26,293 nucleotides of DNA. Source: a virus. Every line of letters begins with the position of its first letter. Positions within the stretch are counted from its first letter, which is position 1. Shown here one piece after another: positions 1-17,147 of the stretch. The stretch lies in UHGV virus genome UHGV-0165251, one strand, 5' to 3'. The notes beneath the pieces are model-generated. The model did no database searches. It was not told the DNA's origin and saw nothing but the letters and a program-made list of their open reading frames with translations. The position numbers and the translations under genes are program-made.

Positions 1-52
1 TTATCAATTTGTTGCAACGAACAGGTCACTATCAGTCAAAATAAAATCATTA
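1..52. other. attL P' arm (partial); Int arm-type binding sites at 23..52; core lies just left of the window
   Basis: Sequence matches my recollection of the lambda attP P' arm (ttatcaatttgttgcaacgaacaggtcactatcagtcaaaat); three arm-type-like decamers (aggtcactat, cagtcaaaat, aaaatcatta) abut the int stop codon. Confidence 0.6.
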
Positions 53-1120
53 TTTGATTTCAATTTTGTCCCACTCCCTGCCTCTGTCATCACGATACTG
101 TGATGCCATGGTGTCCGACTTATGCCCGAGAAGATGTTGAGCAAATTTATCGCTTATCTGCTTCTCATAGAGTCTTGCAGACAAACTGCGCAACTCGTGA
201 AAGGTTGGCGGATCCCCTTCGAAGGAAAGACCTGATGCTTTTCGTGCGCGCATAAAATACCTTGATACTGTGCCGGATGAAAGCGGTTCGCGACGAGTAG
301 ATGCAATTATGGTTTCTCCGCTAAGAATCTCTTTGCATTTATCAAGTGTTTCCTTCATTGATATCCCGAGAGCATCAACATGCAATGTTGTAGGGATGGC
401 AATTTTTACGCCTGTTTTGCTTTGCTCGACATAAAGATATCCATCTACGATATCAGACCACTTCATTTCGCATAAATCACCAACTCGCTGCCCGGTAACA
501 ACAGCCAGTTCCATTGCAAGTCTTAGCCAACATGGTGATGATTCTGCTGCTTGATAAATTTTCAGGTATTCGTCAGCCGTAAGTCTTGATCTCCTTACCT
601 CTGATTTTGCTGCGCGAGTGGCAGCGACCGGGTTTGTTGTTATATGGCCTTCAGCTATTGCCTCTCGGAATGCATCGCTTAGTGTTGATCTGATTAACTT
701 GGCTGACGCCGCCTTGCCCTCGTCTATGTATTCATTGAGCATTGCCGCAATTTCTTTTGTGGTGATGTCTTCAAGTGGAGCATCAGGCAGGCCCCTCCTT
801 ATTGCTTTAATTTTGCTCATGTAATTTATGAGTGTCTTCTGCTTGATTCCTCTGCTGGCGAGGATTTTTTCGTAGCGATCAAGCCATGAATGTAACGTAA
901 CAGAATTATCACTGTTGATTCTTGCTGTCAGAGGCTTGTGTTTGTGTCCTGAAAATAACTCAATGTTGGCCTGTATAGCTTCAGTGATTGCTATCCTCCT
1001 GTCTCGGCCTAATCCAAACTCTTTACCCGTCCTTGGGTCCCTGTAGCAGTAATATCCATTGTTTCTTATATAAAGATTAGGGGGTAAATCCCGGCGCTCA
1101 TGACTTCGCCTTCTTCCCAT
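50..1120 (-). CDS. int: tyrosine integrase, lambda Int type
   Basis: 356-aa ORF starting MGRRRSHERRDLPPNLYIRNNGYYCYRDPRTGKEFGLGRDRR and ending with the HxxR...Y catalytic region; near-identical to lambda Int as I recall it. Confidence 0.95.
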   Translation of the reverse strand: MGRRRSHERRDLPPNLYIRNNGYYCYRDPRTGKEFGLGRDRRIAITEAIQANIELFSGHKHKPLTARINSDNSVTLHSWLDRYEKILASRGIKQKTLINYMSKIKAIRRGLPDAPLEDITTKEIAAMLNEYIDEGKAASAKLIRSTLSDAFREAIAEGHITTNPVAATRAAKSEVRRSRLTADEYLKIYQAAESSPCWLRLAMELAVVTGQRVGDLCEMKWSDIVDGYLYVEQSKTGVKIAIPTTLHVDALGISMKETLDKCKEILSGETIIASTRREPLSSGTVSRYFMRARKASGLSFEGDPPTFHELRSLSARLYEKQISDKFAQHLLGHKSDTMASQYRDDRGREWDKIEIK

Positions 1121-1316
1121 TTCTGATCCTCTTCAAAAGGCTACCTGTTACTGGTCGATTTAAGTCAACCTTTACCGCTGATTCGTGGAACAGATACTCT
1201 CTTCCATCCTTAACCGGAGGAGGGAATATCCTGCACTCGCGTACCCATCGACGAACTGTTTCAAGGCTTCTTGGGCGTCGCTGGCGTGCGTTCCACTCCT
1301 GAAGTGTCAAGTACAT
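1098..1316 (-). CDS. xis: excisionase Xis
   Basis: 72-aa product MYLTLQEWNARQRRPRSLETVRRWVRECRIFPPPVKDGREYLFHESAVKVDLNRPVTGSLLKRIRNGKKAKS inside the listed 102-aa ORF; overlaps the int start by 23 nt as in lambda. Confidence 0.9.
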   Translation of the reverse strand: MYLTLQEWNARQRRPRSLETVRRWVRECRIFPPPVKDGREYLFHESAVKVDLNRPVTGSLLKRIRNGKKAKS

Positions 1317-1328
1317 CGCAAAGTCTCC

Positions 1329-1342
1329 GCAATTACACGCAA
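1329..1342 (-). promoter_or_regulatory. CII-binding site (TTGC-N6-TTGC) at the -35 of pI
   Basis: Minus strand reads ttgcgtgtaattgc just upstream of the xis ATG, the lambda pI arrangement. Confidence 0.5.
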
Positions 1343-1364
1343 GAAAAAGCCGCATTGATGCGGC
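1341..1364 (-). terminator. rho-independent terminator-like hairpin
   Basis: Minus strand gccgcatcaatgcggc (6-bp stem, 4-nt loop) followed by tttttctt. Confidence 0.45.
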
Positions 1365-1442
1365 GATGGTAGGTCTGGATATCATTGAGCAATGAACAGG
1401 CCTCATCGAGTGTGAGGCGGTGTGATTTCTTTATTTCCACTC

Positions 1443-3837: not shown

Positions 3838-4001
3838 TGGTTGCCTCCTTTGCGCCACATCGCATTCAGATATTTGTTTTGATTCACTGATGGAAAAGAA
3901 TTTCTCTTAAGCAATTCCTCTCTCGATGGCATTGGCTTTACGCGTTGGCGAATAATCATTTCTGCCGGAAGAATGCCGGGATTGTATGCAAGTCCTCTCA
4001 T
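3834..4001 (-). CDS. hypothetical small protein (55 aa)
   Basis: ATG preceded by gaggaa at 7 nt; product [55 protein letters not shown]; stop overlaps the next start. Confidence 0.3.
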
Positions 4002-4011
4002 GGTAAATTCC

Positions 4012-4308
4012 TCAGTCATTACTGATAGCGCCATAGCGTGAGCGGTAATTACGCAGGCGCGGGTCGATATATTCAGGGAAGTGGCTATATGTTGCTTTGC
4101 GGAATGGTCGGATTGATGTCTGGTAAATTCGCTCTCGTTCTTCTTTCTCTGCAAGCCATATGCAGTGGCGAAATTCCTTTTCCTCTTTCGTTTCCTGCGG
4201 TAGCGACATTATCAGGTCGTAGTTTTTTCTGAATTTATCCAGCACCTCCGATACGGAATTGCCGGAACAGCGGCGCGCGTCGTCCGCACCATACAGAGGC
4301 GCTGGCAT
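4012..4308 (-). CDS. hypothetical protein (98 aa)
   Basis: ATG 9 nt after aagga, directly downstream of the ssb stop; no family recognised. Confidence 0.5.
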
Positions 4309-4331
4309 AATGGAATCCTTATGTTGCTACT

Positions 4332-4715
4332 TTAGAAGGGAATTGAATCGTCGTATTCAGGATGATTTTGATGATTACTACTTTGCTGCTGCGGGCCATT
4401 TCCTGAAGCTGCAAATCCAATCTTTGCATTCAGTAATTCAAGAGTGATTGATTGACCATTTTGCCCCTGATAAACATCAACCCTGATGTTTTCTCCGGTA
4501 ATTTCTACAATGCCACCTTCAACAAGAACACTACGGTAGTAATCCGCTTGCGCTCCCGGCTTGGCAAATACAACGGCGCTGTAGTTTGTCCATTCTTTCT
4601 TTTTTGTCTGGCGATCGTAATACTGAACGCCAGCACGGATGTTGAATCCGATATTTTCCCCGGCCTGAAACTCTCTTGCGGGCTTGTTTAGTCTTACAGT
4701 AATCGAATGTGCCAT
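4332..4715 (-). CDS. ssb: phage single-stranded DNA-binding protein (OB fold, acidic DDSIPF tail)
   Basis: 127-aa product from the ATG overlapping the erf stop (TAATG); C-terminal ...EYDDSIPF resembles the SSB acidic tail DDDIPF. Confidence 0.7.
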   Translation of the reverse strand: MAHSITVRLNKPAREFQAGENIGFNIRAGVQYYDRQTKKKEWTNYSAVVFAKPGAQADYYRSVLVEGGIVEITGENIRVDVYQGQNGQSITLELLNAKIGFAASGNGPQQQSSNHQNHPEYDDSIPF

Positions 4716-5320
4716 TAAGCAGCCGCTCCTTCTAATTCGTCTCGTCTGATGTTGTAAACGTCCTGCGCTTTGTGCTGCTCCGGTGTGCCTTCGAGCATCT
4801 TCCACGCTTTGGCGAACGCCTGTTTAAGCTCTTCCACGGTGTTTTTCTGCATTGCTGCGTCAGTGAATGCTTTTAGAACCTGTTCAGGTGTAGGTGATGG
4901 TTTTGATTGCTTTGCTGCTGCGTTCTGCTGATGTTTATGCTCGTCTGTATCTGCATCTTTCGCATCATCAATGCCGAACAAACCATTGAGGCAATACTTG
5001 CGTGCATAAGAGCTTGTAGCTCCCGTAACTTGTGCAGAATCCATTCCTTTCTTGCTTTCTTCCTCTCGTGCAAGAGCGGTTGCCGTATGACTGTTTTCGC
5101 CATCGGTAATAGTTGCCGTGGCTTTCACGTAATACCGATCACCAATCAACACAACTTCATCGCTGATTGATAAAAACAGACCATTCAGTAACGGCTTAAC
5201 GCCTTCAAGAATGTCTTCGCAGCTTCTGTATTTATATTTGCCGAATGAGTTGTACTGATTCTTTGGCGCGTTCAGATTCTCCTGAATAGCTGCCAGTCTT
5301 GCGTAAAATTCTTTGCTCAT
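4715..5320 (-). CDS. erf: Erf-family single-strand annealing recombinase
   Basis: Product from MSKEFYARLAAIQENLNAPKNQYNSFGKYKYRSCEDILEGVKPLL... closely matches P22 Erf as I recall it. Confidence 0.85.
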   Translation of the reverse strand: MSKEFYARLAAIQENLNAPKNQYNSFGKYKYRSCEDILEGVKPLLNGLFLSISDEVVLIGDRYYVKATATITDGENSHTATALAREEESKKGMDSAQVTGATSSYARKYCLNGLFGIDDAKDADTDEHKHQQNAAAKQSKPSPTPEQVLKAFTDAAMQKNTVEELKQAFAKAWKMLEGTPEQHKAQDVYNIRRDELEGAAA

Positions 5321-5403
5321 ATGATTGTTCTCAGAATGGACACGGCCCAAGGAAATAACGCTGATTTAATACTTCGGCTCGGGACAAATTAAGGCATACC
5401 CGC

Positions 5404-5869: not shown

Positions 5870-6838
5870 TTAGTAGGTTATTTTTGTTGCGAATACTTCG
5901 CCTTTTACGATGGCTGTTATGATATTTTTAGCAACATCTTCTGATGCACCAACCTTGATAAGGTCAGCAAGTATTTTGTTATTTACTTCTTTCCGGTGAG
6001 CTTTATCCTTTGCTCTGCGCTCTTCTTCGTCCTTGATTCTTTTTTCTTCTGCTATTCTGGCTTGCTCTTTTGCTTCAGCATCGCGACGGATTTGTTCAGC
6101 ATCCTCCTGTGCTTTTCTGCGTTCTGCTTCAATTGCTGCCTGCTTTTCTCTTTCAGCTCGTTCTGCTGCCTCTTTTGCTTCGCGCTGTGCTCGTTGCTCG
6201 GCTTCAATGCGTTCACGCTCTGCACGTTCCGCTGCGGCCTTAGCTTCTGCTTCTCGCCTTGCTGCTGCTTCAATTTCGGCTTTTGCCTTTGCTTCGGCTT
6301 CTGCTCTGGCTTTCTCTTCAGCTTCTCTTTTTAAGCGCTCTTCATGCTCTCGCTTTTCCCGCTCCGTTTTGAGTCTTGCCTCTTCTCTTTGGCGGTCAAA
6401 TTCGCGATCCATCAAAATCGCTATTTCATGGTCAGACTCAATTTGCTTTGCGAGAGCTTCAGCTGCTGCCTTAGCTTCTTCTTCGGCTTTAATCCGCGCC
6501 TGTTCTTCCTCATAATCAGTAAGAGGCTGGCGTGCCTTGGCTTTCAGCTCATCAAGGCGATCACGCACTGTCTTGCGGTTAGCATCAATTAGCTTTGGAA
6601 TTTCTTTCAGTTCAGCAACAAGGTCTTTGCCAAGACCATCGAGATATGTTTTCGTCTGCGCAACTTTATACGCCAGAGAAGCGATCTCCTTTCTGCCCTT
6701 TGCCGTTGTGATATCAGGCACAAAGGACATAACTTCACGTTCAACCTTTTGAAGGATTTCTTCAATCTGGTCGGAAGACTGAAATACAGTCATTGCATTT
6801 GCTTTTTCAATAACAACTAAATCTGTTACTTCACTCAT
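5870..6838 (-). CDS. hypothetical coiled-coil protein with a long charged E/A/K/R-rich central region
   Basis: 322-aa ORF; ggagga RBS; ~150-aa stretch of AEAKAKAEIEAAARREAEAKAAAERAERE-type repeats between distinct N- and C-terminal domains. Confidence 0.75.
   Translation of the reverse strand: MSEVTDLVVIEKANAMTVFQSSDQIEEILQKVEREVMSFVPDITTAKGRKEIASLAYKVAQTKTYLDGLGKDLVAELKEIPKLIDANRKTVRDRLDELKAKARQPLTDYEEEQARIKAEEEAKAAAEALAKQIESDHEIAILMDREFDRQREEARLKTEREKREHEERLKREAEEKARAEAEAKAKAEIEAAARREAEAKAAAERAERERIEAEQRAQREAKEAAERAEREKQAAIEAERRKAQEDAEQIRRDAEAKEQARIAEEKRIKDEEERRAKDKAHRKEVNNKILADLIKVGASEDVAKNIITAIVKGEVFATKITY
5996..6400. repeat. low-complexity purine/pyrimidine-skewed repeat DNA encoding the charged repeat region
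   Basis: Imperfect reiteration of ctgcttc/ttctgc/ttttgc units; generates spurious long ORFs in other frames. Confidence 0.6.
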
Positions 6839-6850
6839 ATATCCTCCGTC

Positions 6851-6876
6851 AAAAAATTGCCCTCACATCGGAGGGC
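6851..6876 (-). terminator. rho-independent terminator
   Basis: Minus strand ttgccctc-cgatgt-gagggcaa followed by tttttt, immediately upstream of the RBS of the coiled-coil gene; the same hairpin precedes ea10 in lambda as I recall it. Confidence 0.55.
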
Positions 6877-6982
6877 AAAGAAGATTTCCAATAATCAGAA
6901 CAAGTCGGCTCCTGTTTAGTTACGAGCGACATTGCTCCGTGTATTCACTCGTTGGAATGAATACACAGTGCCTATTCGCAGC

Positions 6983-7309
6983 CTACATAATCATTCCGGT
7001 TATTATTACCATTTCAATATCACTATCTTTCATAATGATTGGTGTTGAGTTATCAACTTTACTTTTACTCCATTTTCCTGCATCAGTTTTTACCGCTCCA
7101 CAATAAGAAAGCCAATCATCATCACAATGTTCTGGATCACTGATTCTGACAAGAACTCGTGATAGTGCTTTTTCGATACTTTCATCACAATTAGCATTTG
7201 TGTAATTGCCGTGAGACAATTTCAAATCGTTAACTTCATCTTCATTGGCATCAAAAATATAGATTTCAGTCGACTCTGGAACATTTTCATAAACCATTAA
7301 AACTTTCAT
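6983..7309 (-). CDS. hypothetical acidic protein (108 aa) at the position lambda uses for ral
   Basis: ORF rich in D/E (net charge roughly -11 by my count); no family recognised. Confidence 0.6.
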   Translation of the reverse strand: MKVLMVYENVPESTEIYIFDANEDEVNDLKLSHGNYTNANCDESIEKALSRVLVRISDPEHCDDDWLSYCGAVKTDAGKWSKSKVDNSTPIIMKDSDIEMVIITGMIM

Positions 7310-7324
7310 TTTTACCCCGTATTG

Positions 7325-7352
7325 TTTATGCCAAAAATAAAGGCCTACTATG
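7325..7352. repeat. 28-bp direct repeat, copy 1 (tttatgccaaaaataaaggcctactatg)
   Basis: 27/28 identical to copy 2 at 8095..8122; the same motif lies downstream of ral in lambda as I recall it. Confidence 0.7.
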
Positions 7353-7368
7353 CGTCCTAGTAGAATGC

Positions 7369-7827
7369 CTAATTTTCTGTTTCTTGGTTGTGTCCAAAGT
7401 TATATTCAATATCTGGTGTTGATGTATCAATATTCTTCATCCCATCAACAAGAGTTGATACAACAGCCAAATCTTGTTTGATTCTCATTAAATGGTATTT
7501 CTTCCGGCGCAATAAACTTTCAATGGCAAGTTTCTTCGTTGGGAATGCAAAAGATCTTTCTGCATTTTTTGCTACTTTCTTAATTTCATATCTATTTCTC
7601 TTTTGTTTCCATTCCTGTAACCACTGATTTGGTGCTGGTTTAAAATTAACGATCCAATGCGCAGGAACCAACCATGCATAATGCTCTGTCTGATGAAAAG
7701 CTATATATTGAAGTGCGAATATTTTGATTCCATCTTCTTCAACTGTCGCCTGGAATCTCCAGAAAACAGGCATTCCATCATGTTCAGTTTCTGATTCAGG
7801 AAAAGGTACGCTCCATGATATTGTCAT
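7369..7827 (-). CDS. hypothetical protein (152 aa), second gene of the repeat-flanked cassette
   Basis: Start overlaps the upstream stop (ATGA); no family recognised. Confidence 0.65.
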   Translation of the reverse strand: MTISWSVPFPESETEHDGMPVFWRFQATVEEDGIKIFALQYIAFHQTEHYAWLVPAHWIVNFKPAPNQWLQEWKQKRNRYEIKKVAKNAERSFAFPTKKLAIESLLRRKKYHLMRIKQDLAVVSTLVDGMKNIDTSTPDIEYNFGHNQETEN

Positions 7828-8078
7828 ATCTCACCTTCAAGAGCTTTGCTGATTGCTGACAGTGCTTTCGATACTTCATCAGGATAATGGTCATTCCATT
7901 TTTGCTTGTATGCCTTGTTTAGCATCGCTTGCAGAGCTTCGAGCAAATCAGGAGCTGCCTCCATCAATCTCACATCACCTCGATGGATGGTTGTATCGTC
8001 AAACGTGAAATAAACCCCATCATCGTTAAATCCAGCGCCAACAACATTCCATGGCCTTTTCATTCTTCCTACTGTCAT
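7824..8078 (-). CDS. hypothetical protein (84 aa), first gene of the repeat-flanked cassette
   Basis: gaggtga RBS; translationally coupled to the 152-aa gene; no family recognised. Confidence 0.65.
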   Translation of the reverse strand: MTVGRMKRPWNVVGAGFNDDGVYFTFDDTTIHRGDVRLMEAAPDLLEALQAMLNKAYKQKWNDHYPDEVSKALSAISKALEGEI

Positions 8079-8094
8079 TATTCACCTCTGTGTA

Positions 8095-8122
8095 TTTATG
8101 CCAAAAATAAAGGCCGACTATG
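8095..8122. repeat. 28-bp direct repeat, copy 2 (tttatgccaaaaataaaggccgactatg)
   Basis: Direct repeat of 7325..7352; contains the stop codon of the 8118..8432 gene. Confidence 0.7.
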
Positions 8123-8432
8123 TGGCTTTATATCTGCGCACTGAAATAATTGGGCAGTGTGTAATTCCAGCAGTCTTTTCCCATCTCAACAATGGGATGC
8201 GGAATACTTCGAACTCCACCTTCCCGATATGGTCGTTTTGGAAATCCTTTTTCCCCACCAACCAAACCTTTTCAAATCTACGCTCTATAAGGAAAGCTGA
8301 TGACCATCCATATTTAGAACCAGCTTTTAACGCTTCCTTTTTTGTCGGAAAGGTTGTAACAATGGAAATTATCTCATCAACTCGGAGGCTTAAAAGATTA
8401 TTGTCTTTAAAGCTAATTCCGTTCGACGCCAT
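8118..8432 (-). CDS. hypothetical protein (104 aa) immediately downstream of N
   Basis: Start 3 nt after the N stop; no family recognised. Confidence 0.55.
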   Translation of the reverse strand: MASNGISFKDNNLLSLRVDEIISIVTTFPTKKEALKAGSKYGWSSAFLIERRFEKVWLVGKKDFQNDHIGKVEFEVFRIPLLRWEKTAGITHCPIISVRRYKAT

Positions 8433-8435
8433 AAT

Positions 8436-8741
8436 TCATCCCTCATACAGTGGTTTGCTGCCTAATTTCATTTTCTGGCGACCAACACAAGTCACACCCA
8501 TTTCACTGCGTGGCTTGCGGTAGTAAATACGATTCTGTTTACGCTCGACTTCTTCTGACTTCTTGCAGCGAAGGCTTCCGAGTGATGCTGCTTTATCTGC
8601 TCTGACGCAACCAGAGAGCTTTAGCGCAATTTTTCGCGCCAGTCGCTGCTCTTGCATTGCCTGTTCACGTTGAGCCTGTCTGCGTGCTCTGCGGCGATTT
8701 CTGGCGTTATCGTCAGCCAGATATGTAATGACTACTGTCAT
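8436..8741 (-). CDS. N: N-type transcription antiterminator
   Basis: N-terminal arginine-rich motif NARNRRRARRQAQRE; C-terminal YRKPRSEMGVTCVGRQKMKLGSKPL resembles lambda N (YSKPGERGITCSGRQKIKGKSIPLI). Confidence 0.8.
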   Translation of the reverse strand: MTVVITYLADDNARNRRRARRQAQREQAMQEQRLARKIALKLSGCVRADKAASLGSLRCKKSEEVERKQNRIYYRKPRSEMGVTCVGRQKMKLGSKPLYEG

Positions 8742-8849
8742 GTTGACCTCCGATGATTGACTTTGGCGGTGACGCGCCGGGTGCTTATCTTCCGGTTGCT
8801 GTCGTGCAGCTGCACTTCACGTCACCCCAAAGCCAACTACTCTTTGGTT

Positions 8850-8889
8850 CCCGCATTTCGGCGGGACAATCCCATCAATGTTAAAGAGC
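8850..8889 (-). promoter_or_regulatory. nutL (boxA gctctttaa plus boxB hairpin cccgccgaaatgcggg)
   Basis: The same boxA and boxB sequences recur at 10519..10561 on the plus strand (nutR); nutL lies between pL and N. Confidence 0.6.
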
Positions 8890-8935
8890 CTGCCAATCTT
8901 TTCCGTTTGGCTTCCAGCTTCCTGCTGATGGCTAA

Positions 8936-9022
8936 AGAATACTGTAGGTATTTTATTGTGTAAATACCCAAGGTATTTATTTTTGATGAAATAATGATAA
9001 GCAAATGAATACAAAGGATATT
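8936..9022 (-). promoter_or_regulatory. oL/pL: three operators AATAC-N5-GTATT (8938..8952, 8963..8977, 9008..9022); pL -35 tttaca and -10 tattct
   Basis: Palindromes of the same consensus as in oR; putative -10 and -35 (17-bp spacer) overlap OL1 and OL2. Confidence 0.55.
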
Positions 9023-9108
9023 TATTTTTTCGGTGTCTGCTTGTTCAGTGCTTTTTATGCGGGATATGTGAAGTGGATCCCGATAGCTATTGCTGCCGGG
9101 ATTATAGG

Positions 9109-9477
9109 TTAGTCAGCGAAGGTTAAGACGAGAATTAACTTAATGATGTCTGCTACAACAGACACGGCCATAGATAAACCAAAGACGATCCAAGCCACAG
9201 TGATGTCTTCACTACCATCGTATAGAGTTCCGTAATCACTGGTGTAAGGCGTAAATGTCGCGCCTTGATACAACAGGTATAAGCTTGAACCATAGAGGAT
9301 AAATGCAGATATCCCTTGTATTGCTATGATCACTAGAATCATGAAACGAGCTGATCTATGCGCCCAAGCCTGTCTTATTTTTTCTGATAGAGATTTCGCA
9401 ATAAAAGCATGCGCTAAGCCGTAAATTGTCGAGATTGCCAACATCCCAAAAAAGCTTGCTATAGCGGTTCCAACCAT
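9109..9477 (-). CDS. hypothetical integral membrane protein (3 predicted TM helices) co-transcribed with cI
   Basis: ATG 16 nt after the cI stop with aagggg RBS (the ORF track starts it at TTG overlapping the cI stop); three long hydrophobic segments; not RexB-like. Confidence 0.65.
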   Translation of the reverse strand: MVGTAIASFFGMLAISTIYGLAHAFIAKSLSEKIRQAWAHRSARFMILVIIAIQGISAFILYGSSLYLLYQGATFTPYTSDYGTLYDGSEDITVAWIVFGLSMAVSVVADIIKLILVLTFAD

Positions 9478-9494
9478 AAGCGCCCCTTGCGTGA

Positions 9495-10211
9495 TCAAAC
9501 CAGCCTTAGTTTTGTCTCAATTGCAACGCCTATAATCTTGCAGTTTCCATTGATTGGCACGAGAGGCCATGCAGGGTTAAGTCCCTTGAGGTATTTATTT
9601 CCTCCGTCGATTATCAGCTTCTTGAATGTTGCCTCGTTAGAGTCAGAAAGTTTTGCTATGACCAAGCTGCCGTTGATCGCCTCCCTTCCGGTATCGAAAA
9701 GAACGAATGTTCCCTCTGGAATGCTTAACCCAACCGGTGCCGTCATTGAATCACCTTCCACTTTAAGCCAGAACGCATTACCTTGAATATGCGCGTCAGA
9801 CTCAAGCCAAACATCTATGTCTTTAATGGTGTATGGTTCGCATGCTTCACACCACGAGCCAGCCTGGATACTGCTTAACACCGGATACCTCTTTCCTGCT
9901 CTGTATTCCCCTGCATACCTTACGTTGGCATCGCTCTTAAGGCTTTCTGCCTGTTCTGCAACCTTGGCAGCAATTGACTGGCTAAAATCAGCAATTGAGA
10001 CTTGCAACAATCGTGCAAAACCAGATGCAACCTCAACGTTTAGCGCATTTCTGCCATTAAGATAATGCCCTACCGCTCCTTGGGTGATACCCAGTTCATC
10101 AGCGATTGAGTATTGGGTTATTCCCAATTCTTTCTTTTTTGACTCATACAAAGCCTTAAGCCGCTTAGCGTCTTCCAGCTGTTCTGTCGTCAGTGATTTT
10201 TTATTTTCCAT
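9495..10211 (-). CDS. cI: CI repressor (HTH domain plus LexA/S24-type autocleavage domain)
   Basis: 238 aa; N-terminal HTH (ITQYSIADELGITQGAVGHYLNG), C-terminal GDSM serine and K dyad region (GDSMTAPVG...VIAKL...TFKKL). Confidence 0.9.
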   Translation of the reverse strand: MENKKSLTTEQLEDAKRLKALYESKKKELGITQYSIADELGITQGAVGHYLNGRNALNVEVASGFARLLQVSIADFSQSIAAKVAEQAESLKSDANVRYAGEYRAGKRYPVLSSIQAGSWCEACEPYTIKDIDVWLESDAHIQGNAFWLKVEGDSMTAPVGLSIPEGTFVLFDTGREAINGSLVIAKLSDSNEATFKKLIIDGGNKYLKGLNPAWPLVPINGNCKIIGVAIETKLRLV

Positions 10212-10518: not shown

Positions 10519-10561
10519 CGCTCTTTAACAGTCATGGTCCTCATTCCCGCCGAAATGCGGG
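10519..10561 (+). promoter_or_regulatory. nutR (boxA cgctctttaa, boxB cccgccgaaatgcggg)
   Basis: Immediately downstream of cro; boxB identical to the nutL copy. Confidence 0.65.
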
Positions 10562-10569
10562 AATACAAC

Positions 10570-10600
10570 GCGCATAAGTTGATGCGCATAACTTCTTATT
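10570..10600 (+). terminator. tR1-like hairpin (gcgcat-aagttg-atgcgc)
   Basis: 6-bp stem followed by a moderately T-rich tract between nutR and cII. Confidence 0.3.
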
Positions 10601-10620
10601 TGTTAAGGAAATACTTACAT

Positions 10621-10914
10621 ATGGTTCGTGCAAACAAACGCAACGAGGCTCTAAGAATCGAGAGTGCGTTGCTTAACAAAATCGCAATGCTTGGAACTGA
10701 GAAGACAGCGGAAGCTGTGGGAGTTGATAAGTCGCAGATCAGCAGGTGGAAGAGGGATTGGATTCCAAAGTTCTCAATGCTGCTTGCTGTTCTTGAATGG
10801 GGCGTCGTCGACGACGATATGGCTCGATTGGCACGACAAGTTGCTTCGATTCTCACCAATAAAAAACGCCCGGCGGCAACCGAGCGTTCTGAACAAATCC
10901 AGATGGAATTCTGA
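10621..10914 (+). CDS. cII: CII transcriptional activator
   Basis: 97-aa product MVRANKRNEALRIESALLNKIAMLGTEKTAEAVGVDKSQISRWKRDW... near-identical to lambda CII as I recall it. Confidence 0.9.
   Translation: MVRANKRNEALRIESALLNKIAMLGTEKTAEAVGVDKSQISRWKRDWIPKFSMLLAVLEWGVVDDDMARLARQVASILTNKKRPAATERSEQIQMEF
10630..10643 (-). promoter_or_regulatory. pRE CII-binding site (ttgcgtttgtttgc on minus strand)
   Basis: TTGC-N6-TTGC direct repeat inside the cII 5' end, antisense orientation. Confidence 0.5.
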
Positions 10915-10937
10915 GGTCATTACTGGATCAATCCACA
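10860..10937 (-). ncRNA. oop: oop antisense RNA with terminator hairpin
   Basis: Plus strand aataaaaaacgcccggcggcaaccgagcgttctgaacaaatccagatgga... matches the lambda oop region as I recall it; cgcccggcggc hairpin plus T-run on the minus strand. Confidence 0.55.
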
Positions 10938-10946
10938 GGAGTAATT

Positions 10947-11108
10947 ATGACAAAACGTCGTAAGAAATACCAGGAAAAAGAAGAGATTCGACACCCTGAT
11001 TCACCTGAGGGATTAGTGGTAGCCGCAGCAAATAACAGGGCGTTCGCAGAGCGCCTTGTTGGTGTTTACAGACTAGCCAAAGCAGGAGTGAAACATGGGC
11101 GTCGTTAA
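10947..11108 (+). CDS. possible small basic protein (53 aa) between cII and the O-like gene
   Basis: Own translation [53 protein letters not shown]; ggag 7 nt upstream; overlaps the O-like start by 14 nt. Confidence 0.25.
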   Translation: MTKRRKKYQEKEEIRHPDSPEGLVVAAANNRAFAERLVGVYRLAKAGVKHGRR

Positions 11109-11916
11109 GTTAGCTGATTACAGGCCTCAACTGGAGGTCGTGGAGCATCGCGTGGCAGATACCGAAGATGGTTTCATGCGCGTTGCTAACGAGATTACCG
11201 ACAGTCTGCTGATGGCTGATTTAACCGTCCGGCAGCTGAAGGTGATGCTCGCTATCATGCGCAAGACATACGGATTCAATAAGCCGATGGATCGACTCAC
11301 AAACACGCAGATAGCAGCCATGACAGGTATTCATCACACTCATGTTTGCGCTGCCAAGCGCCAGCTTATCGAGCGTAAATTCCTCATTGCTGATGGCGTG
11401 AAAATCGGAGTGAACAAGGTGGTTTCTCAGTGGATTAGCCAGGACAGCTTAACATTAGCTAAAACAGCTAATAAAACATTAGCCAAGTCGGCTAATGGGC
11501 ATAAGCCAAGTCAGCTAAACACAAAAGACAATATACAAAAGACAATAAATACAAATACCCCCTTACCCCCTAACGGGGGCGGCGATGGGCAGGTTAAACC
11601 TGAACGTCGCAAGGCAGAACGAATCGACTACGAATCCTTCCTGAACGCCTACAACACCGAAGTCGGTGACAGACTTCCACATGCTGTTGCGGTCAACGAG
11701 AAACGCAAACGCCGCCTGAAGAAAATCATCCCGCAACTGAAAACGCCAAACGTGGACGGTTTCAGAGCGTATGTCAGGGCGTTTGTGCATCAGGCCAAGC
11801 CGTTTTACTTCGGAGACAACGACACGGGCTGGACGGCTGATTTTGATTACTTGCTGAGAGAAGATTCGTTAACGGGGGTTCGGGAAGGGAAGTTTGCAGA
11901 CAGGGGGATAGCATGA
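11095..11916 (+). CDS. O: replication initiator, lambda O / P22 gp18-like N-terminal domain
   Basis: [32 protein letters not shown] matches lambda O (LTKRQFKVLLAILRKTYGWNKPMDRITDSQLS); C-terminal half unrelated to lambda O. Confidence 0.8.
11453..11557. other. candidate replication origin: three ~20-bp iterons plus AT-rich tract inside the O-like gene
   Basis: cattagctaaaacagctaat / cattagccaagtcggctaat / cataagccaagtcagctaaac followed by acaaaagacaatatacaaaagacaataaatacaaatac. Confidence 0.5.
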
Positions 11917-13289
11917 GACAGGATATCGAAGCGAGCGTTATCGGTGGCCTGCTGATTGGTGGATTAACTCCAACCGCCAGCGACGTTCTGGCAACGCTGG
12001 AGCCGGAAGCGTTTTCAATTCCGCTCTACCGGAAAGCCTTCGAGGTTATCCGCAAGCAGGCGAGAAACAGAAACCTAATCGATGCGCTGATGGTTGCCGA
12101 GGCGTGCGGAGAGGAGCATTTCACGTCAATCCTGATGACCAGCAAAAACTGCCCGAGTGCCGCAAACCTGAAGGGATATGCAGGAATGGTCGCGGATAAC
12201 TATCACCGCCGTCTGGTGCTGGAAATCATGGATGAAATGCGTGAACCAATTCAGAGCGGAACCATCGACGCATCGAGTCAGGCGATGGATGAACTTGTAA
12301 AGCGTCTTTCAGCCATCAGAAAGCCCCGTGACGAGGTTAAACCGGTACGGTTAGGGGAAATCATCACTGACTACACTGACACGCTTGACAGGCGTCTGAG
12401 GAACGGAGAAGAGTCAGATACCCTGAAGACCGGAATCGACGAACTTGACGCCATCACCGGAGGGATGAACGCAGAAGACCTGGTGATTATCGCCGCTCGT
12501 CCTGGTATGGGTAAAACCGAACTGGCGCTGAAGATTGCCGAAGGCGTTGCAAGCCGTGTTATTCCTGGTTCTGACGTCCGGCGCGGAGTGTTGATTTTCT
12601 CGATGGAAATGAGCGCATTGCAGATTGCAGAGCGAAGCATTGCCAACGCCGGGAGGATGTCGGTTAGCGTACTGCGAAATCCTGCATCGATGGATGACGA
12701 AGGCTGGGCGCGTGTTGCTAACGGCATGAGTCAGCTTGCAGATTTGGATGTATGGGTAGTCGATGCCTCGCGGTTATCGGTCGAAGAAATTCGCTCAATC
12801 GCAGAGCGGCACAAACAGGAAAATCCAAACCTGTCACTCATCATGGCGGATTATCTTGGCCTGATTGAGAAGCCGAAAGCAGATCGCAACGACCTCGCAA
12901 TTGCTCACATCTCCGGAAACCTGAAGGCGATGGCGAAAGACCTGAAAACACCGGTTATTTCCCTGAGTCAGCTTTCACGCGATGTTGAGAAGCGACCAAA
13001 CAAACGCCCGACAAACGCAGATTTGCGTGATTCAGGAAGCATTGAACAGGACGCAGACTCAATCATCATGCTCTATCGGGAAGCGGTATATGACGAGAAC
13101 AGTAGCGCCGCGCCATTTGCTGAAATCATCGTGACGAAAAACCGTTTTGGCTCACTTGGTACGGTTTACCAGCGGTTCTGCAACGGACACTTTGTTGCAT
13201 GTGACCAGGATGAAGCCAGACAGATTTGCACAACATCAAATGCACCCGCTGCGCGTGGCAGACGATATGCACAAGGGGCTGACGTATGA
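11913..13289 (+). CDS. DnaB-family replicative helicase (P22 gp12-like)
   Basis: 458 aa; Walker [10 protein letters not shown], DnaB motifs (SLEMS-like [18 protein letters not shown]); start overlaps the O-like stop (ATGA). Confidence 0.9.
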
Positions 13290-13315
13290 ACATCTACATC
13301 ACTGAGATAATAACA

Positions 13316-13345
13316 GGGGCTATTTACACAGTAGCCCTTTTTTAT
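13316..13345 (+). terminator. tR2-like rho-independent terminator
   Basis: gggcta-tttacacag-tagccc followed by ttttttatt; at the position and of the form of lambda tR2. Confidence 0.6.
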
Positions 13346-13367
13346 TGGATTAAGAACGAGGGGGATC

Positions 13368-13583
13368 ATGATGGACACCGTTAACGGAATGTGTTCAGAC
13401 GCACCGCGTGCCAAAAAATGTAAATGCGGAAAATCACCGACAATATTCGACATGGAGAACGGGTGCCAAATCTACTGCGCTAACCACGCCGCTGTGGCGG
13501 CCGCGAATTATCGCAGTGCGGTAACGGAGTGGAATAACCTGAAATCTGTTAGAGAGGGAAGTCATGAAAAAACTAACCTTTGA
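13368..13583 (+). CDS. hypothetical small Cys-rich protein (71 aa)
   Basis: gaggggg RBS; C..C.C...C..YC pattern; lies in a ~220-bp insert between tR2 and ninB. Confidence 0.5.
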   Translation: MMDTVNGMCSDAPRAKKCKCGKSPTIFDMENGCQIYCANHAAVAAANYRSAVTEWNNLKSVREGSHEKTNL

Positions 13584-14004
13584 AATTCGATCCCCAGCAC
13601 ATCAGCAAAACGCTATTCACGCAGTACAGCAAATCCTTCCAGACCCAACCAAACCAATCGTAGTAACCATTCAGGAACGCAACCGCAGCTTAGACCAAAA
13701 CAGGAAGCTATGGGCCTGCTTAGGTGACGTCTCTCGTCAGGTTGAATGGCATGGTCGCTGGCTGGATGCAGAAAGCTGGAAGTGTGTGTTTACCGCAGCA
13801 TTAAAGCAGCAGGACGTTGTTCCTAACCTTGCCGGGAATGGCTTTGTGGTAATAGGCCAGTCAACCAGCAGGATGCGTGTAAGCGAATTTGCGGAGCTAT
13901 TAGAGCTTATACAGGCATTCGGTACAGAGCGTGGCGTTAAATGGTCAGACGAAGCGCGACTGGCTCTGGAGTGGAAAGCGAGATGGGGAGATAAAACTGA
14001 ATGA
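13564..14004 (+). CDS. ninB: NinB (Orf-family recombination mediator)
   Basis: MKKLTFEIRSPAHQQNAIHAVQQILPDPTKPIVVTIQERNRSLDQNRKLWA... near-identical to lambda NinB as I recall it. Confidence 0.9.
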   Translation: MKKLTFEIRSPAHQQNAIHAVQQILPDPTKPIVVTIQERNRSLDQNRKLWACLGDVSRQVEWHGRWLDAESWKCVFTAALKQQDVVPNLAGNGFVVIGQSTSRMRVSEFAELLELIQAFGTERGVKWSDEARLALEWKARWGDKTE

Positions 14005-14591
14005 ACAAATACCGACTTATTTACGCAGATCCGCCTTGGCAATATCGCGACAAAGCCAACGATGGCAATCGCGGTGCTGGACATAAATACGATGTTATGA
14101 ATGTTCAGGACATTTGCCGACTGCCAGTATGGGATTTAGCGGATCCAGAATCTTGCTTGTTAGCGATGTGGTGGGTGCCGACACAGCCAGCCGAAGCGCT
14201 AAAGGTAATTGAGGCGTGGGGATTCAGGTTGATGACTATGAAAGGCTTTACTTGGCACAAAACCAATAAGCACAAAGGCAACAGTGCGATCGGAATGGGG
14301 CATATGACCCGGGCAAATAGCGAGGATTGCTTGTTTGCCGTTCGAGGGCGGTTACCTGAGAGAATGGACGCTTCAATATGCCAGCACTTTACCGCACCGA
14401 GAATGGAGCACAGTGCAAAACCACCGATCGTAAGAGACATGTTAGCTAAGTTGCTTGGCGACGTGCCGCGCTGTGAGTTATTTAGCCGCGACAAAGTGAC
14501 CGGGTGGGATATGTGGGGCAATCAGTGCGACTCCGATTTTGAACTGGCTACCGGCATGGCGATTAAACCATGCAAAATGGTGATCGCATGA
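14001..14591 (+). CDS. DNA N6-adenine methyltransferase, MT-A70 family (orphan)
   Basis: N-terminal [10 protein letters not shown] (DPPW catalytic motif); occupies the slot of lambda ninC; no adjacent restriction endonuclease. Confidence 0.8.
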
Positions 14592-14761
14592 AGCACTGTT
14601 ATCGATGTGGAGAGCGAAAGGAAGACGATCGCTTTCGACCCGGGCAACATTACTGGAATCGATGGTGTCTCCGGTGTGAAAGAACACCAACAGGGGTGTT
14701 ACCACTACCGCAGGAAAAGGAGGACGTGTGGCGAGACAGCGACGAAGTATCACCGACATAA
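14588..14761 (+). CDS. ninD: NinD
   Basis: [57 protein letters not shown] resembles lambda NinD; start overlaps the methyltransferase stop. Confidence 0.7.
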
Positions 14762-15884: not shown

Positions 15885-16527
15885 TGGCAGCAAATACCGA
15901 AATATTTGGGTAGTTGGCGATCTGCACGGATGCTACACGAACCTGATGAAAAAACTGGAGACGATAGGATTCGACACCAAAAAAGACCTGCTTATCTCGG
16001 TTGGCGATTTGGTCGATCGCGGTACAGAGAACGTCGAATGCCTGGAATTAATCACATTCCCCTGGTTCAGAGCTGTACGTGGAAACCATGAGCAAATGAT
16101 GATTGATGGCTTATCAGAGCGCGGAAACGTCAATCACTGGATGCTTAATGGCGGTGGCTGGTTCTTTAATCTCGATTACGACAAAGAAATTCTGGCTAAA
16201 GCTCTTGCCCATAAAGCAGATGAACTTCCGTTAATCATCGAACTGGTGAGCAAAGATAAAAAATATGTCATCTGCCACGCCGATTATCCTTGTGACGAAT
16301 ACGAGTTTGGAAAGCCAGTTGATCATCAGCAGGTAATCTGGAACCGCGAACGAATCAGCAACTCACAAGACGGGATCGTGAAAGAAATCAAAGGCGCGGA
16401 CACGTTCATCTTTGGTCATACGCCAGCAGTGAAACCACTCAAGTTTGCCAACCAGATGTATATCGATACCGGCGCAGTGTTCTGCGGAAACCTCACATTG
16501 ATTCAAGTACAGGGAGAAGGCGCATGA
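15862..16527 (+). CDS. ninI: NinI Ser/Thr protein phosphatase (calcineurin-like metallophosphatase)
   Basis: From [25 protein letters not shown]...GDLVDRG...GNHE (metallophosphatase motifs); matches the lambda phosphatase. Confidence 0.9.
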
Positions 16528-17147
16528 GACTCGAAAGCGTGGCTAAATTTCATTCGCCAAAAAGCCCGATGATGAGTGACTCACCACGGGCCACGGCTTC
16601 TGACTCTCTTTCTGGTACTGATGTGATGGCTGCTATGGGGATGGCGCAATCACAAGCCGGATTCGGAATGGCTGCATTCTGTGGTAAGCACGAACTCAGC
16701 CAGAACGACAAACAAAAGGCTATCAACTATCTGATGCAATTTGCACACAAGGTATCGGGGAAATACCGTGGTGTGGCAAAGCTTGAAGGAAATACTAAGG
16801 CAAAGGTACTGCAAGTGCTCGCAACATTCGCTTATGCGGATTATTGCCGTAGTGCCGCGACGCCGGGAGCAAGATGCAGAGATTGCCACGGTACAGGCCG
16901 TGCGGTTGATATAGCCAAAACGGAGCAGTGGGGGAGAGTTGTTGAGAAAGAGTGCGGAAGATGCAAAGGTGTCGGCTATTCAAGAATGCCAGCAAGCGCA
17001 GCATATCGCGCTGTGACGATGCTAATCCCAAATCTTACCCAACCCACCTGGTCACGCACTGTTAAGCCGCTGTATGACGCTCTGGTGGTGCAATGCCACA
17101 AAGAAGAGTCAATCGCAGACAACATTTTGAATGCGGTCACACGTTAG
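16524..17147 (+). CDS. Q: Q late-gene antiterminator
   Basis: 207 aa with zinc-finger CRDCHGTG...CGRCKG; near-identical to lambda Q as I recall it. Confidence 0.9.

Follow-up and report, generated by a model that had tools for sequence, protein, structure and literature searches.

The closest studied relatives of the enzyme described here are the MT-A70-type methylases M.EcoGV and M.EcoPA8orf6770P of Stx2a prophages. According to two citing papers, the primary source being Fang et al. 2012, M.EcoGV figures as GATC-specific in a table restricted to PacBio-determined specificities (PMC6602927, Table 3), and GATC methylation is described upon its overproduction in vivo (PMC10810198). Gong et al. 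(PMC10810198) reported that the Stx-phage enzyme alone is weak and non-specific on DNA in vitro, GATC-containing DNA included, and that it forms a 1:1 complex with PNB-2, a protein reported to direct a preference for rRNA. In a SAM-consumption assay this holoenzyme preferred 16S rRNA and 30S subunits, and the authors argued that the real substrate is 16S rRNA. They also reported that the enzyme increases spontaneous prophage induction. Shorter variants of it occur without PNB-2, and the full C-terminal tail was suggested as maybe important for the holoenzyme (PMC10810198).

Other described members of the family are linked to GATC as well. The p32 protein of Serratia phage vB_SspM_BZS1 was found to be GATC-specific by MboI/DpnI digestion in a dam- host (PMC7556043), and gp35 of coliphage HK639 is reported to be 75% identical to it (PMC7556043). 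The MT-A70 enzyme of Tn1549 (M.EfaBMDam) is cited as GATC-specific in the same paper (PMC7556043).

We analysed a related gene in a stretch of 26,293 nucleotides from the virus genome UHGV-0165251 (hereafter, the window). The window is a lambdoid prophage, running from the integrase through to the head genes, and the features that matter for the following are these:

50-1406, minus strand: integrase and excisionase
about 4000-5350, minus strand: ERF recombinase, anti-RecBCD protein and SSB
8436-8741, minus strand: N-like antiterminator gene (PHROG 271, E 1.8e-37)
9495-10211, minus strand: cI-type repressor
10534-13289, plus strand: cII, O-type replication protein and DnaB-type helicase
13315..13347, plus strand: tR2-like intrinsic terminator (10-bp stem, 5-nt loop, then a TTTTTATT tail)
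13564..14004, plus strand: ninB (orf), recombination mediator gene and upstream neighbour (Pfam PF05772, E 1.1e-54)
14001..14591, plus strand: orphan MT-A70 (class beta) N6-adenine methyltransferase gene (ORF with an ATG start, 196 aa)
14005..14585, plus strand: cassette differing from lambda, which has ninC here (BLASTN and lambda annotation)
14588..14761, plus strand: ninD, downstream neighbour (Pfam PF17466, E 9.9e-39, full length 57 aa)
16524-17147: Q gene, after the nin genes and a NinI-type phosphatase

Downstream of Q lie holin and Rz, followed by terminase, portal, scaffold and coat genes. When the window was compared with complete E. coli genomes, the best of them covered 66% of it at 98% identity, the window being a different mosaic.

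The methyltransferase matched the Pfam family PF05063 (MT-A70) over the whole profile, positions 1-172 of 172, with an E-value of 4.7e-25 and 88.9 bits. The gathering cut-off of this family is 23.9 bits, and the match is far above chance. Among the PHROGs it fell into phrog_359, 'DNA methyltransferase' (E 3e-106), and PADLOC matched it to the Type II component MTase_II (E 4e-70), while a search of NCBIfam with the protein matched no family. A preliminary description of this DNA had assigned the protein to the MT-A70 family and had given it a DPPW motif and a length of 196 aa; the Pfam match bears out the family, and the motif and the length can both be read directly from the sequence.

The gene is already known and is annotated as such in RefSeq, and both its type and its location are familiar from other phages. 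The identical protein was present on 380 public contigs from Salmonella, E. coli and other Enterobacteriaceae, under the names 'MT-A70 family methyltransferase' or 'S-adenosylmethionine-binding protein'. The 591-bp gene occurred at 95–100% identity in 39 of 5426 complete E. coli genomes, and among the matches listed there, all were annotated in the order NinB, MT-A70 family methyltransferase, NinD. Relatives of 70–92% identity were spread across prophages of the Enterobacterales. A representative library of 1.84 billion proteins, clustered at 50%, yielded 12,528 relatives at E<=0.001.

Both ends of the gene are tightly joined to its neighbours. The TGA of ninB (14002-14004) overlaps the ATG of the methyltransferase (14001-14003) in an ATGA junction, and the TGA of the methyltransferase (14589-14591) overlaps the ATG of ninD (14588-14590) in a second one. 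A Shine-Dalgarno-like run, GGGGAG, is found at 13985-13990, 10 nt ahead of the methyltransferase start. The claimed translational coupling to both neighbours thus fits the overlap at each end. However, ATGA coupling is a generic trait of the nin regions of lambdoid phages (PMC8022706), and because such tight packing is general there, the coupling is not special to the methyltransferase gene.

The comparison with lambda located the borders of the exchanged gene. BLASTN gave 97.8% identity over window positions 13552-14004, ending exactly at the ninB stop, and the similarity came back from 14586, 2 nt before the ninD start, at 93.8%. Between the same points lambda carries the 873-nt ninC. Relative to lambda, one whole gene thus stands in for another, the methyltransferase for ninC, with the ATGA junctions as its exact borders, and the placement between ninB and ninD in lieu of the lambda ninC, as proposed in the preliminary description, was confirmed by these breakpoints (14004/14586) and by the lambda annotation. 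In lambda, exactly this place is taken by NinC (orf290), and the flanks there are 94–98% identical to those of the window. NinC is, however, a PAPS-reductase-like protein of an unrelated family and no methyltransferase.

We surveyed this position in 80 IMG/VR loci whose NinB was at least 99% identical to that of the window, and could classify the next gene in 79. It was an HK97-type Dam of the family PF05869 in 39 of the 79 loci (behind a further ORF in one of them). In 22 loci ninE followed at once and in six ninD did, seven had ninC, and five had an MT-A70 gene of the window type. The site after ninB is therefore a polymorphic cassette site, and in a little over half of the 79 prophages it holds an adenine methyltransferase of either of two unrelated families. 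The HK97 methyltransferase, which is the commonest occupant next to a near-identical ninB, resembles the window gene in lying directly after ninB with the same ATGA junctions and in being an orphan N6-adenine DNA methyltransferase; it differs in having 175 aa and in lying between ninB and ninE. Kinship between the two enzymes was ruled out (BLASTP E 7.5; PF05869 versus PF05063).

The methyltransferase clade also usually lies directly downstream of NinB-type genes. We observed this in a second set of 80 IMG/VR loci, whose methyltransferases were 72–100% identical to that of the window. All 27 near-identical loci had NinB upstream and NinD downstream. Among 25 loci with an MT-A70 protein of 80–92% identity, a NinB or a DUF1367 gene ended at most 18 nt upstream in 13: NinB in eight, these proteins being 27–56% identical to the window NinB, and DUF1367 in five. 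A third family, of 147 aa, stood upstream in three of the 25, adjacent in two and 164 nt off in the third. The downstream gene in this group varied between NinD, NinE, NinX and others, and more distant relatives of the methyltransferase had PerC-like or other genes upstream. We dropped the stronger statement that a NinB homologue always precedes the methyltransferase, as hhalign found no similarity between the DUF1367 and NinB profiles and only a weak one between the 147-aa family and NinB (probability 67%).

An arrangement of this kind could suggest a module directed to single-stranded DNA, in which NinB/Orf hands single-stranded intermediates of replication or recombination over to the methyltransferase. 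NinB binds ssDNA and SSB, and YbcN, another member of its family, was at one time linked to base flipping (PMC4118853). The unrelated Dam family likewise follows directly after ninB in the slot survey, and methylation of ssDNA in vitro is on record for human METTL3-METTL14 (PMC6928010). We nevertheless hold such a module to be very unlikely; the adjacency may more simply reflect the conserved order of the nin operon together with a favoured first exchangeable junction.

The position of the gene also bears on when it would be expressed. A strong terminator with a T-rich tail (13315-13339) separates the DnaB-type helicase gene from the nin genes, at the place that tR2 has in lambda. No promoter-like site was found on the plus strand from this terminator to the methyltransferase start, and the promoter scan gave seven sites against 8.7 expected from shuffled sequences. 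A promoter of its own for the methyltransferase gene thus found no support, the scan being below the shuffle expectation and without a site upstream on the strand of the gene. As the gene lies downstream of the tR2-like terminator in the pR operon, with no promoter-like site in between, it should be silent in a repressed prophage. By analogy with the biology of lambda, it would belong to the pR delayed-early transcript, depend on antitermination by N, and be made in lytic growth rather than in the repressed lysogen. The preliminary description had considered two roles, protection of the phage DNA from restriction or an epigenetic action; of these, an epigenetic role in the lysogen is made less likely by the delayed-early position and the lack of a promoter-like site of its own.

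The gene is a stand-alone methyltransferase among the window ORFs tested, and not one half of a Type II restriction-modification system. No restriction endonuclease family was detected in these ORFs by Pfam, PADLOC or PHROGs, and of the Type II restriction-modification components PADLOC matched only MTase_II. Pfam identified NinB upstream, and NinD, NinE, NinF and NinG downstream; with Nin proteins on both flanks, the absence of an adjacent endonuclease that had been claimed earlier held as well. Several small ORFs at 5870-9498 are without assignable function and might conceivably include a novel nuclease, but none of them adjoins the methyltransferase.

We examined the integrity of the enzyme in alignments of 22 and 36 homologues of 69–98% identity. 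The stretches discussed below are:

14028..14039, plus strand: catalytic motif IV, D10-P11-P12-W13 (DPPW), read from the sequence
14257..14310, plus strand: variable loop, about residues 86-103, a candidate target-recognition loop (clade differences)
14409..14423, plus strand: conserved H137-S-A-K-P141, HSxKP (homologue alignments)
14475..14525, plus strand: C-terminal block E159-L-F-S-R163 ... W172-G-N-Q175, motif I / SAM-binding region in the beta permutation (alignments)

Loss of catalytic residues on alignment had been named in advance as an outcome that would speak against an active enzyme, and the alignments gave the opposite, with D10, P11 and W13 of DPPW invariant in the 36 homologues. 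S138, K140 and P141 were also invariant, as were E159, F161, R163, W172 and G173, and H137 was nearly so. DPPW, HSxKP, ELFxR and WGNQ are kept even in the proteins of the Stx phages and HK639, which are more distant relatives. In a phmmer alignment, the DPPW of the methyltransferase stood opposite that of Tetrahymena MTA1, whose D209, the catalytic Asp of this motif, is the residue mutated in PDB 8xyx; HSxKP was aligned with the equivalent S-x-KP stretch of MTA1, and ELFSR with its EIFAR. From what is known of the family, HSxKP would have a role in binding the cofactor or the substrate. The order of the motifs is that of the beta class, with DPPW near the N-terminus (10-13), ahead of the ELFSR...WGNQ block (159-175).

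An AF2 model of the methyltransferase, built on a shallow alignment and used for fold assignment only, was of moderate quality (pTM 0.71, mean pLDDT 66). Its low-confidence loops comprise residues 14-31, 81-107 and 131-137, with pLDDT <50 at 81-90 and 93-107. In a Foldseek search of the PDB, the top matches of this model were METTL3 and MTA1 (probability 1.0, TM 0.57–0.60), and the window protein is accordingly predicted to have the Rossmann-like methyltransferase fold of these enzymes. METTL3-METTL14 and the Tetrahymena MTA1 complex share this fold and the catalytic DPPW with the window enzyme. However, the identity to these eukaryotic MT-A70 enzymes is only about 20–25%, and they work as heterodimers, paired with a paralogue that is dead and joined by further subunits, whereas the window encodes no paralogue.

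Pairwise dN/dS values were 0.03–0.08 against relatives of 73–96% amino acid identity, with dS up to about 2 or more, and the length of 196 aa was constant across a cluster of 228 member sequences. Judged from the sequences, the gene has stayed intact, and purifying selection on it is strong.

Next, we compared the protein with its studied relatives. The Stx2a-converting phage methylase is 62–64% identical to it over 95% of the length. The two are of the same family, with identical DPPW, HSxKP, ELFxR and WGNQC, and both are prophage-borne without a restriction partner. They differ, however, in their setting and in their ends. The Stx gene lies near int/xis behind the 67-aa PNB-2 gene, while the window gene lies in the nin operon with no PNB-2; the Stx enzyme has 208 aa and a longer C-terminal tail as against 196 aa, the two sequences parting after WGNQC; and the Stx enzyme is expressed in lysogens (PMC10810198). 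They also differ in the loop 86-103, which is the sole internal stretch that distinguishes the nin-type clade from the Stx-phage (M.EcoGV-like) clade.

HK639 gp35 is 45–50% identical to the window protein, with all motifs conserved, and has a 24-aa insertion in the variable loop. Like the window enzyme, it and BZS1 p32 are orphan, phage-encoded members of the MT-A70 family, but their genes lie downstream of the integrase gene. Closeness to GATC-specific enzymes was judged through the Stx2a-phage protein and HK639 gp35, with BZS1 p32 and M.EfaBMDam taken from their published descriptions. Both phage relatives with a reported specificity that were compared with the window protein are GATC methylators according to these reports. 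In sequenced phages, the nearest relatives are the Stx2a-phage methylase and an 'adenine methylase' of Erwinia phage 59, which is 82% identical and sits after a DUF1367 gene.

Taken together, we favour the reading, with a probability of roughly 0.6, that the gene encodes a Dam-like orphan DNA adenine methyltransferase, delayed-early and dependent on N antitermination, that tops up the methylation of replicating phage DNA. Its gene is an exchangeable cassette, placed at the first junction between genes in the nin region of this lambdoid prophage. It would be transcribed from pR and only past the tR2-like terminator with N-mediated read-through, and its translation would be coupled to that of ninB and ninD through the closely packed ATGA overlaps. 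The enzyme would be present together with the replication proteins in lytic growth, and would methylate adenines of the replicating phage DNA and, incidentally, of host DNA, most probably in GATC. It would top up the mark that host Dam leaves incomplete on fast-replicating lambdoid DNA, and the packaged genomes would thereby be protected from methylation-sensitive nucleases in the current and the next host. The virion DNA of P22 and lambda is in fact undermethylated by host Dam, probably since replication outruns the host enzyme (PMC8022706). We infer the DNA substrate, the GATC target and the benefit to the phage; DNA is the likely substrate. Speaking against this reading, an enzyme for GATC seems superfluous where the enterobacterial host is itself Dam+, and the relative from the Stx phage is reported to be only weak and non-specific on DNA when alone (PMC10810198). 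The window itself has 60 GATC sites against 102 expected from its base composition, a difference from which we draw nothing further, since the density of GATC in lambda is similar.

The target rather than the substrate may be what differs from Dam. The loop 86-103 is the likeliest determinant of specificity, and since it is unlike that of both GATC-specific relatives, the M.EcoGV-like and the HK639-like clades, the target could be another one; however, these two clades also differ from each other there despite their shared reported specificity for GATC. The enzyme could then recognize another short motif, or have a relaxed or absent specificity that gives broad protection against many restriction systems, and such protection would account for an advantage in Dam+ hosts more readily than methylation of GATC. 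Non-specific phage adenine methyltransferases do exist, as in the Serratia prophage OS31 (PMC7556043) and the Hia5 group (PMC3299994), but these precedents may lie outside the MT-A70 family. On the other hand, M.EcoGV, BZS1 p32 and the Tn1549 enzyme, the three MT-A70-type enzymes with experiments in the literature found, are all GATC-specific according to the reports citing or describing them, and those compared with the window protein are close to it, at about 63% and about 45–50% identity. We therefore consider a DNA methyltransferase with a target other than GATC unlikely.

A departure in the substrate would follow the proposal of Gong et al., with the protein methylating 16S rRNA like the M.EcoPA8orf6770P-PNB-2 holoenzyme, and tuning translation or prophage induction. 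The identity of 62–64% to a protein that preferred 16S rRNA and 30S subunits together with PNB-2 (PMC10810198) points this way, as does the presence of the RNA methyltransferase METTL3 among the nearest solved structures. Homologues of PNB-2, and of the PerC-like protein whose gene precedes that of other relatives, are, however, absent from the window, where the upstream gene is ninB: tblastn of both against the whole window gave only chance-level matches (best E 0.15–1.1), and we did not adopt the holoenzyme model on this account. Moreover, the window protein is 12 residues shorter, with a C-terminal tail unrelated to that of the Stx enzyme; the gene lies in the lytic nin operon and not near int/xis; its slot alternates with a Dam-family (PF05869) DNA methyltransferase; and the cited study does not say which rRNA base is modified (PMC10810198). 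An rRNA methyltransferase is thus improbable here, and the Dam-like DNA methyltransferase is favoured because of four of these points: the missing partner, the short tail, the nin position and the slot shared in alternation with Dam. A last possibility is that the protein has decayed or lost its catalysis and persists only as a passenger of the nin region, for instance as a SAM binder that no longer transfers methyl groups. This could be argued from the non-essentiality of nin-region genes in lambda and P22 (PMC8022706), and from those sources that say merely 'S-adenosylmethionine-binding protein'. We regard this as extremely improbable, given that the catalytic and cofactor motifs are all intact and invariant, that dN/dS stays at these low values over dS up to about 2, and that the length is retained throughout the cluster of 228.

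Temperate phages commonly carry orphan adenine methyltransferases, and this very protein is already annotated, so the finding is an ordinary one that matters little as it stands. A prophage-made Dam-like enzyme would be an aid for reading the methylomes of induced E. coli and Salmonella lysogens, and for predicting the host range of phages against methylation-sensitive defences. The reports on the closest studied relative of the window enzyme are in conflict, pointing to GATC in DNA on one side and to 16S rRNA with a partner on the other, and the partner-less version encoded in the nin region would offer a clean test case for the activity of the bare enzyme.

The junction between the ninB gene and the MT-A70 adenine methyltransferase gene that follows it was compared across two sets of 80 IMG/VR loci, one carrying MT-A70 relatives (L007-L086) and the other carrying NinB proteins at least 99% identical to that of the window (L088-L167).
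13564-14591, ninB and the MT-A70 gene
Among the prophages with near-identical NinB, the gene directly after ninB was most often an HK97-type dam (39/79), encoding an adenine methyltransferase unrelated in sequence to MT-A70, while 22 of the 79 had ninE at this place. The remaining ones had ninC (7/79), ninD (6/79) or an MT-A70 gene of the window type (5/79). The junction directly 3′ of ninB is therefore a polymorphic cassette site. Within the window, GATC occurs 60 times versus about 102 expected from base composition (1-26293).

On the upstream side, the usual direct neighbours of the MT-A70 genes of the window clade are divergent NinB-type or DUF1367 genes, and other genes precede MT-A70 in some relatives (L081, L079 and L064). 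These are a gene for a PAPS reductase resembling NinC, with 53% protein identity to the lambda version, and, judging from the look of their sequences, genes for a second putative methyltransferase and a ParB-like protein. Since a NinC-like gene precedes MT-A70 in some relatives, NinC and MT-A70 are not strict alternatives.

The approach to the nin genes contains two further features.
13315-13347 (+), strong intrinsic terminator, 10-bp stem with a T-rich tail
13368-13583 (+), 71-aa Cys-rich ORF, PHROG 6308 (unknown function)
The terminator lies just 3′ of the DnaB-type helicase gene and 5′ of the nin genes, at the position that tR2 has in lambda. The small ORF, which has no Pfam match, is directly 5′ of ninB and shares 20 nt with the start of that gene.

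Genes matching PHROGs of unknown function were also observed farther upstream.
5870-8523, ORF block flanked by the kil/cIII area and the N-like gene
within 5870-8523 (-), ORFs of 322, 108, 152 and 84 aa
8098-8523 (+), 141-aa ORF of the same block
9109-9498 (-), 129-aa ORF, PHROG 6534
The ORFs of the block matched such PHROGs only, with no matches in Pfam or PADLOC. The 129-aa ORF, likewise without a match in either, shares 4 nt with the end of the cI-type repressor gene. It occupies the same position as the lysogen-expressed genes of the lambda rex and P22 sieB type, and is a candidate for a lysogen-expressed exclusion or defence gene.

In Erwinia phage vB_EhrS_59 (L004, 3001-5432), the nin region encodes an adenine methylase of the MT-A70 family with 82% identity to the window protein. 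A C5-cytosine methyltransferase gene lies four genes beyond it. Therefore, nin regions can stack several orphan methyltransferases.
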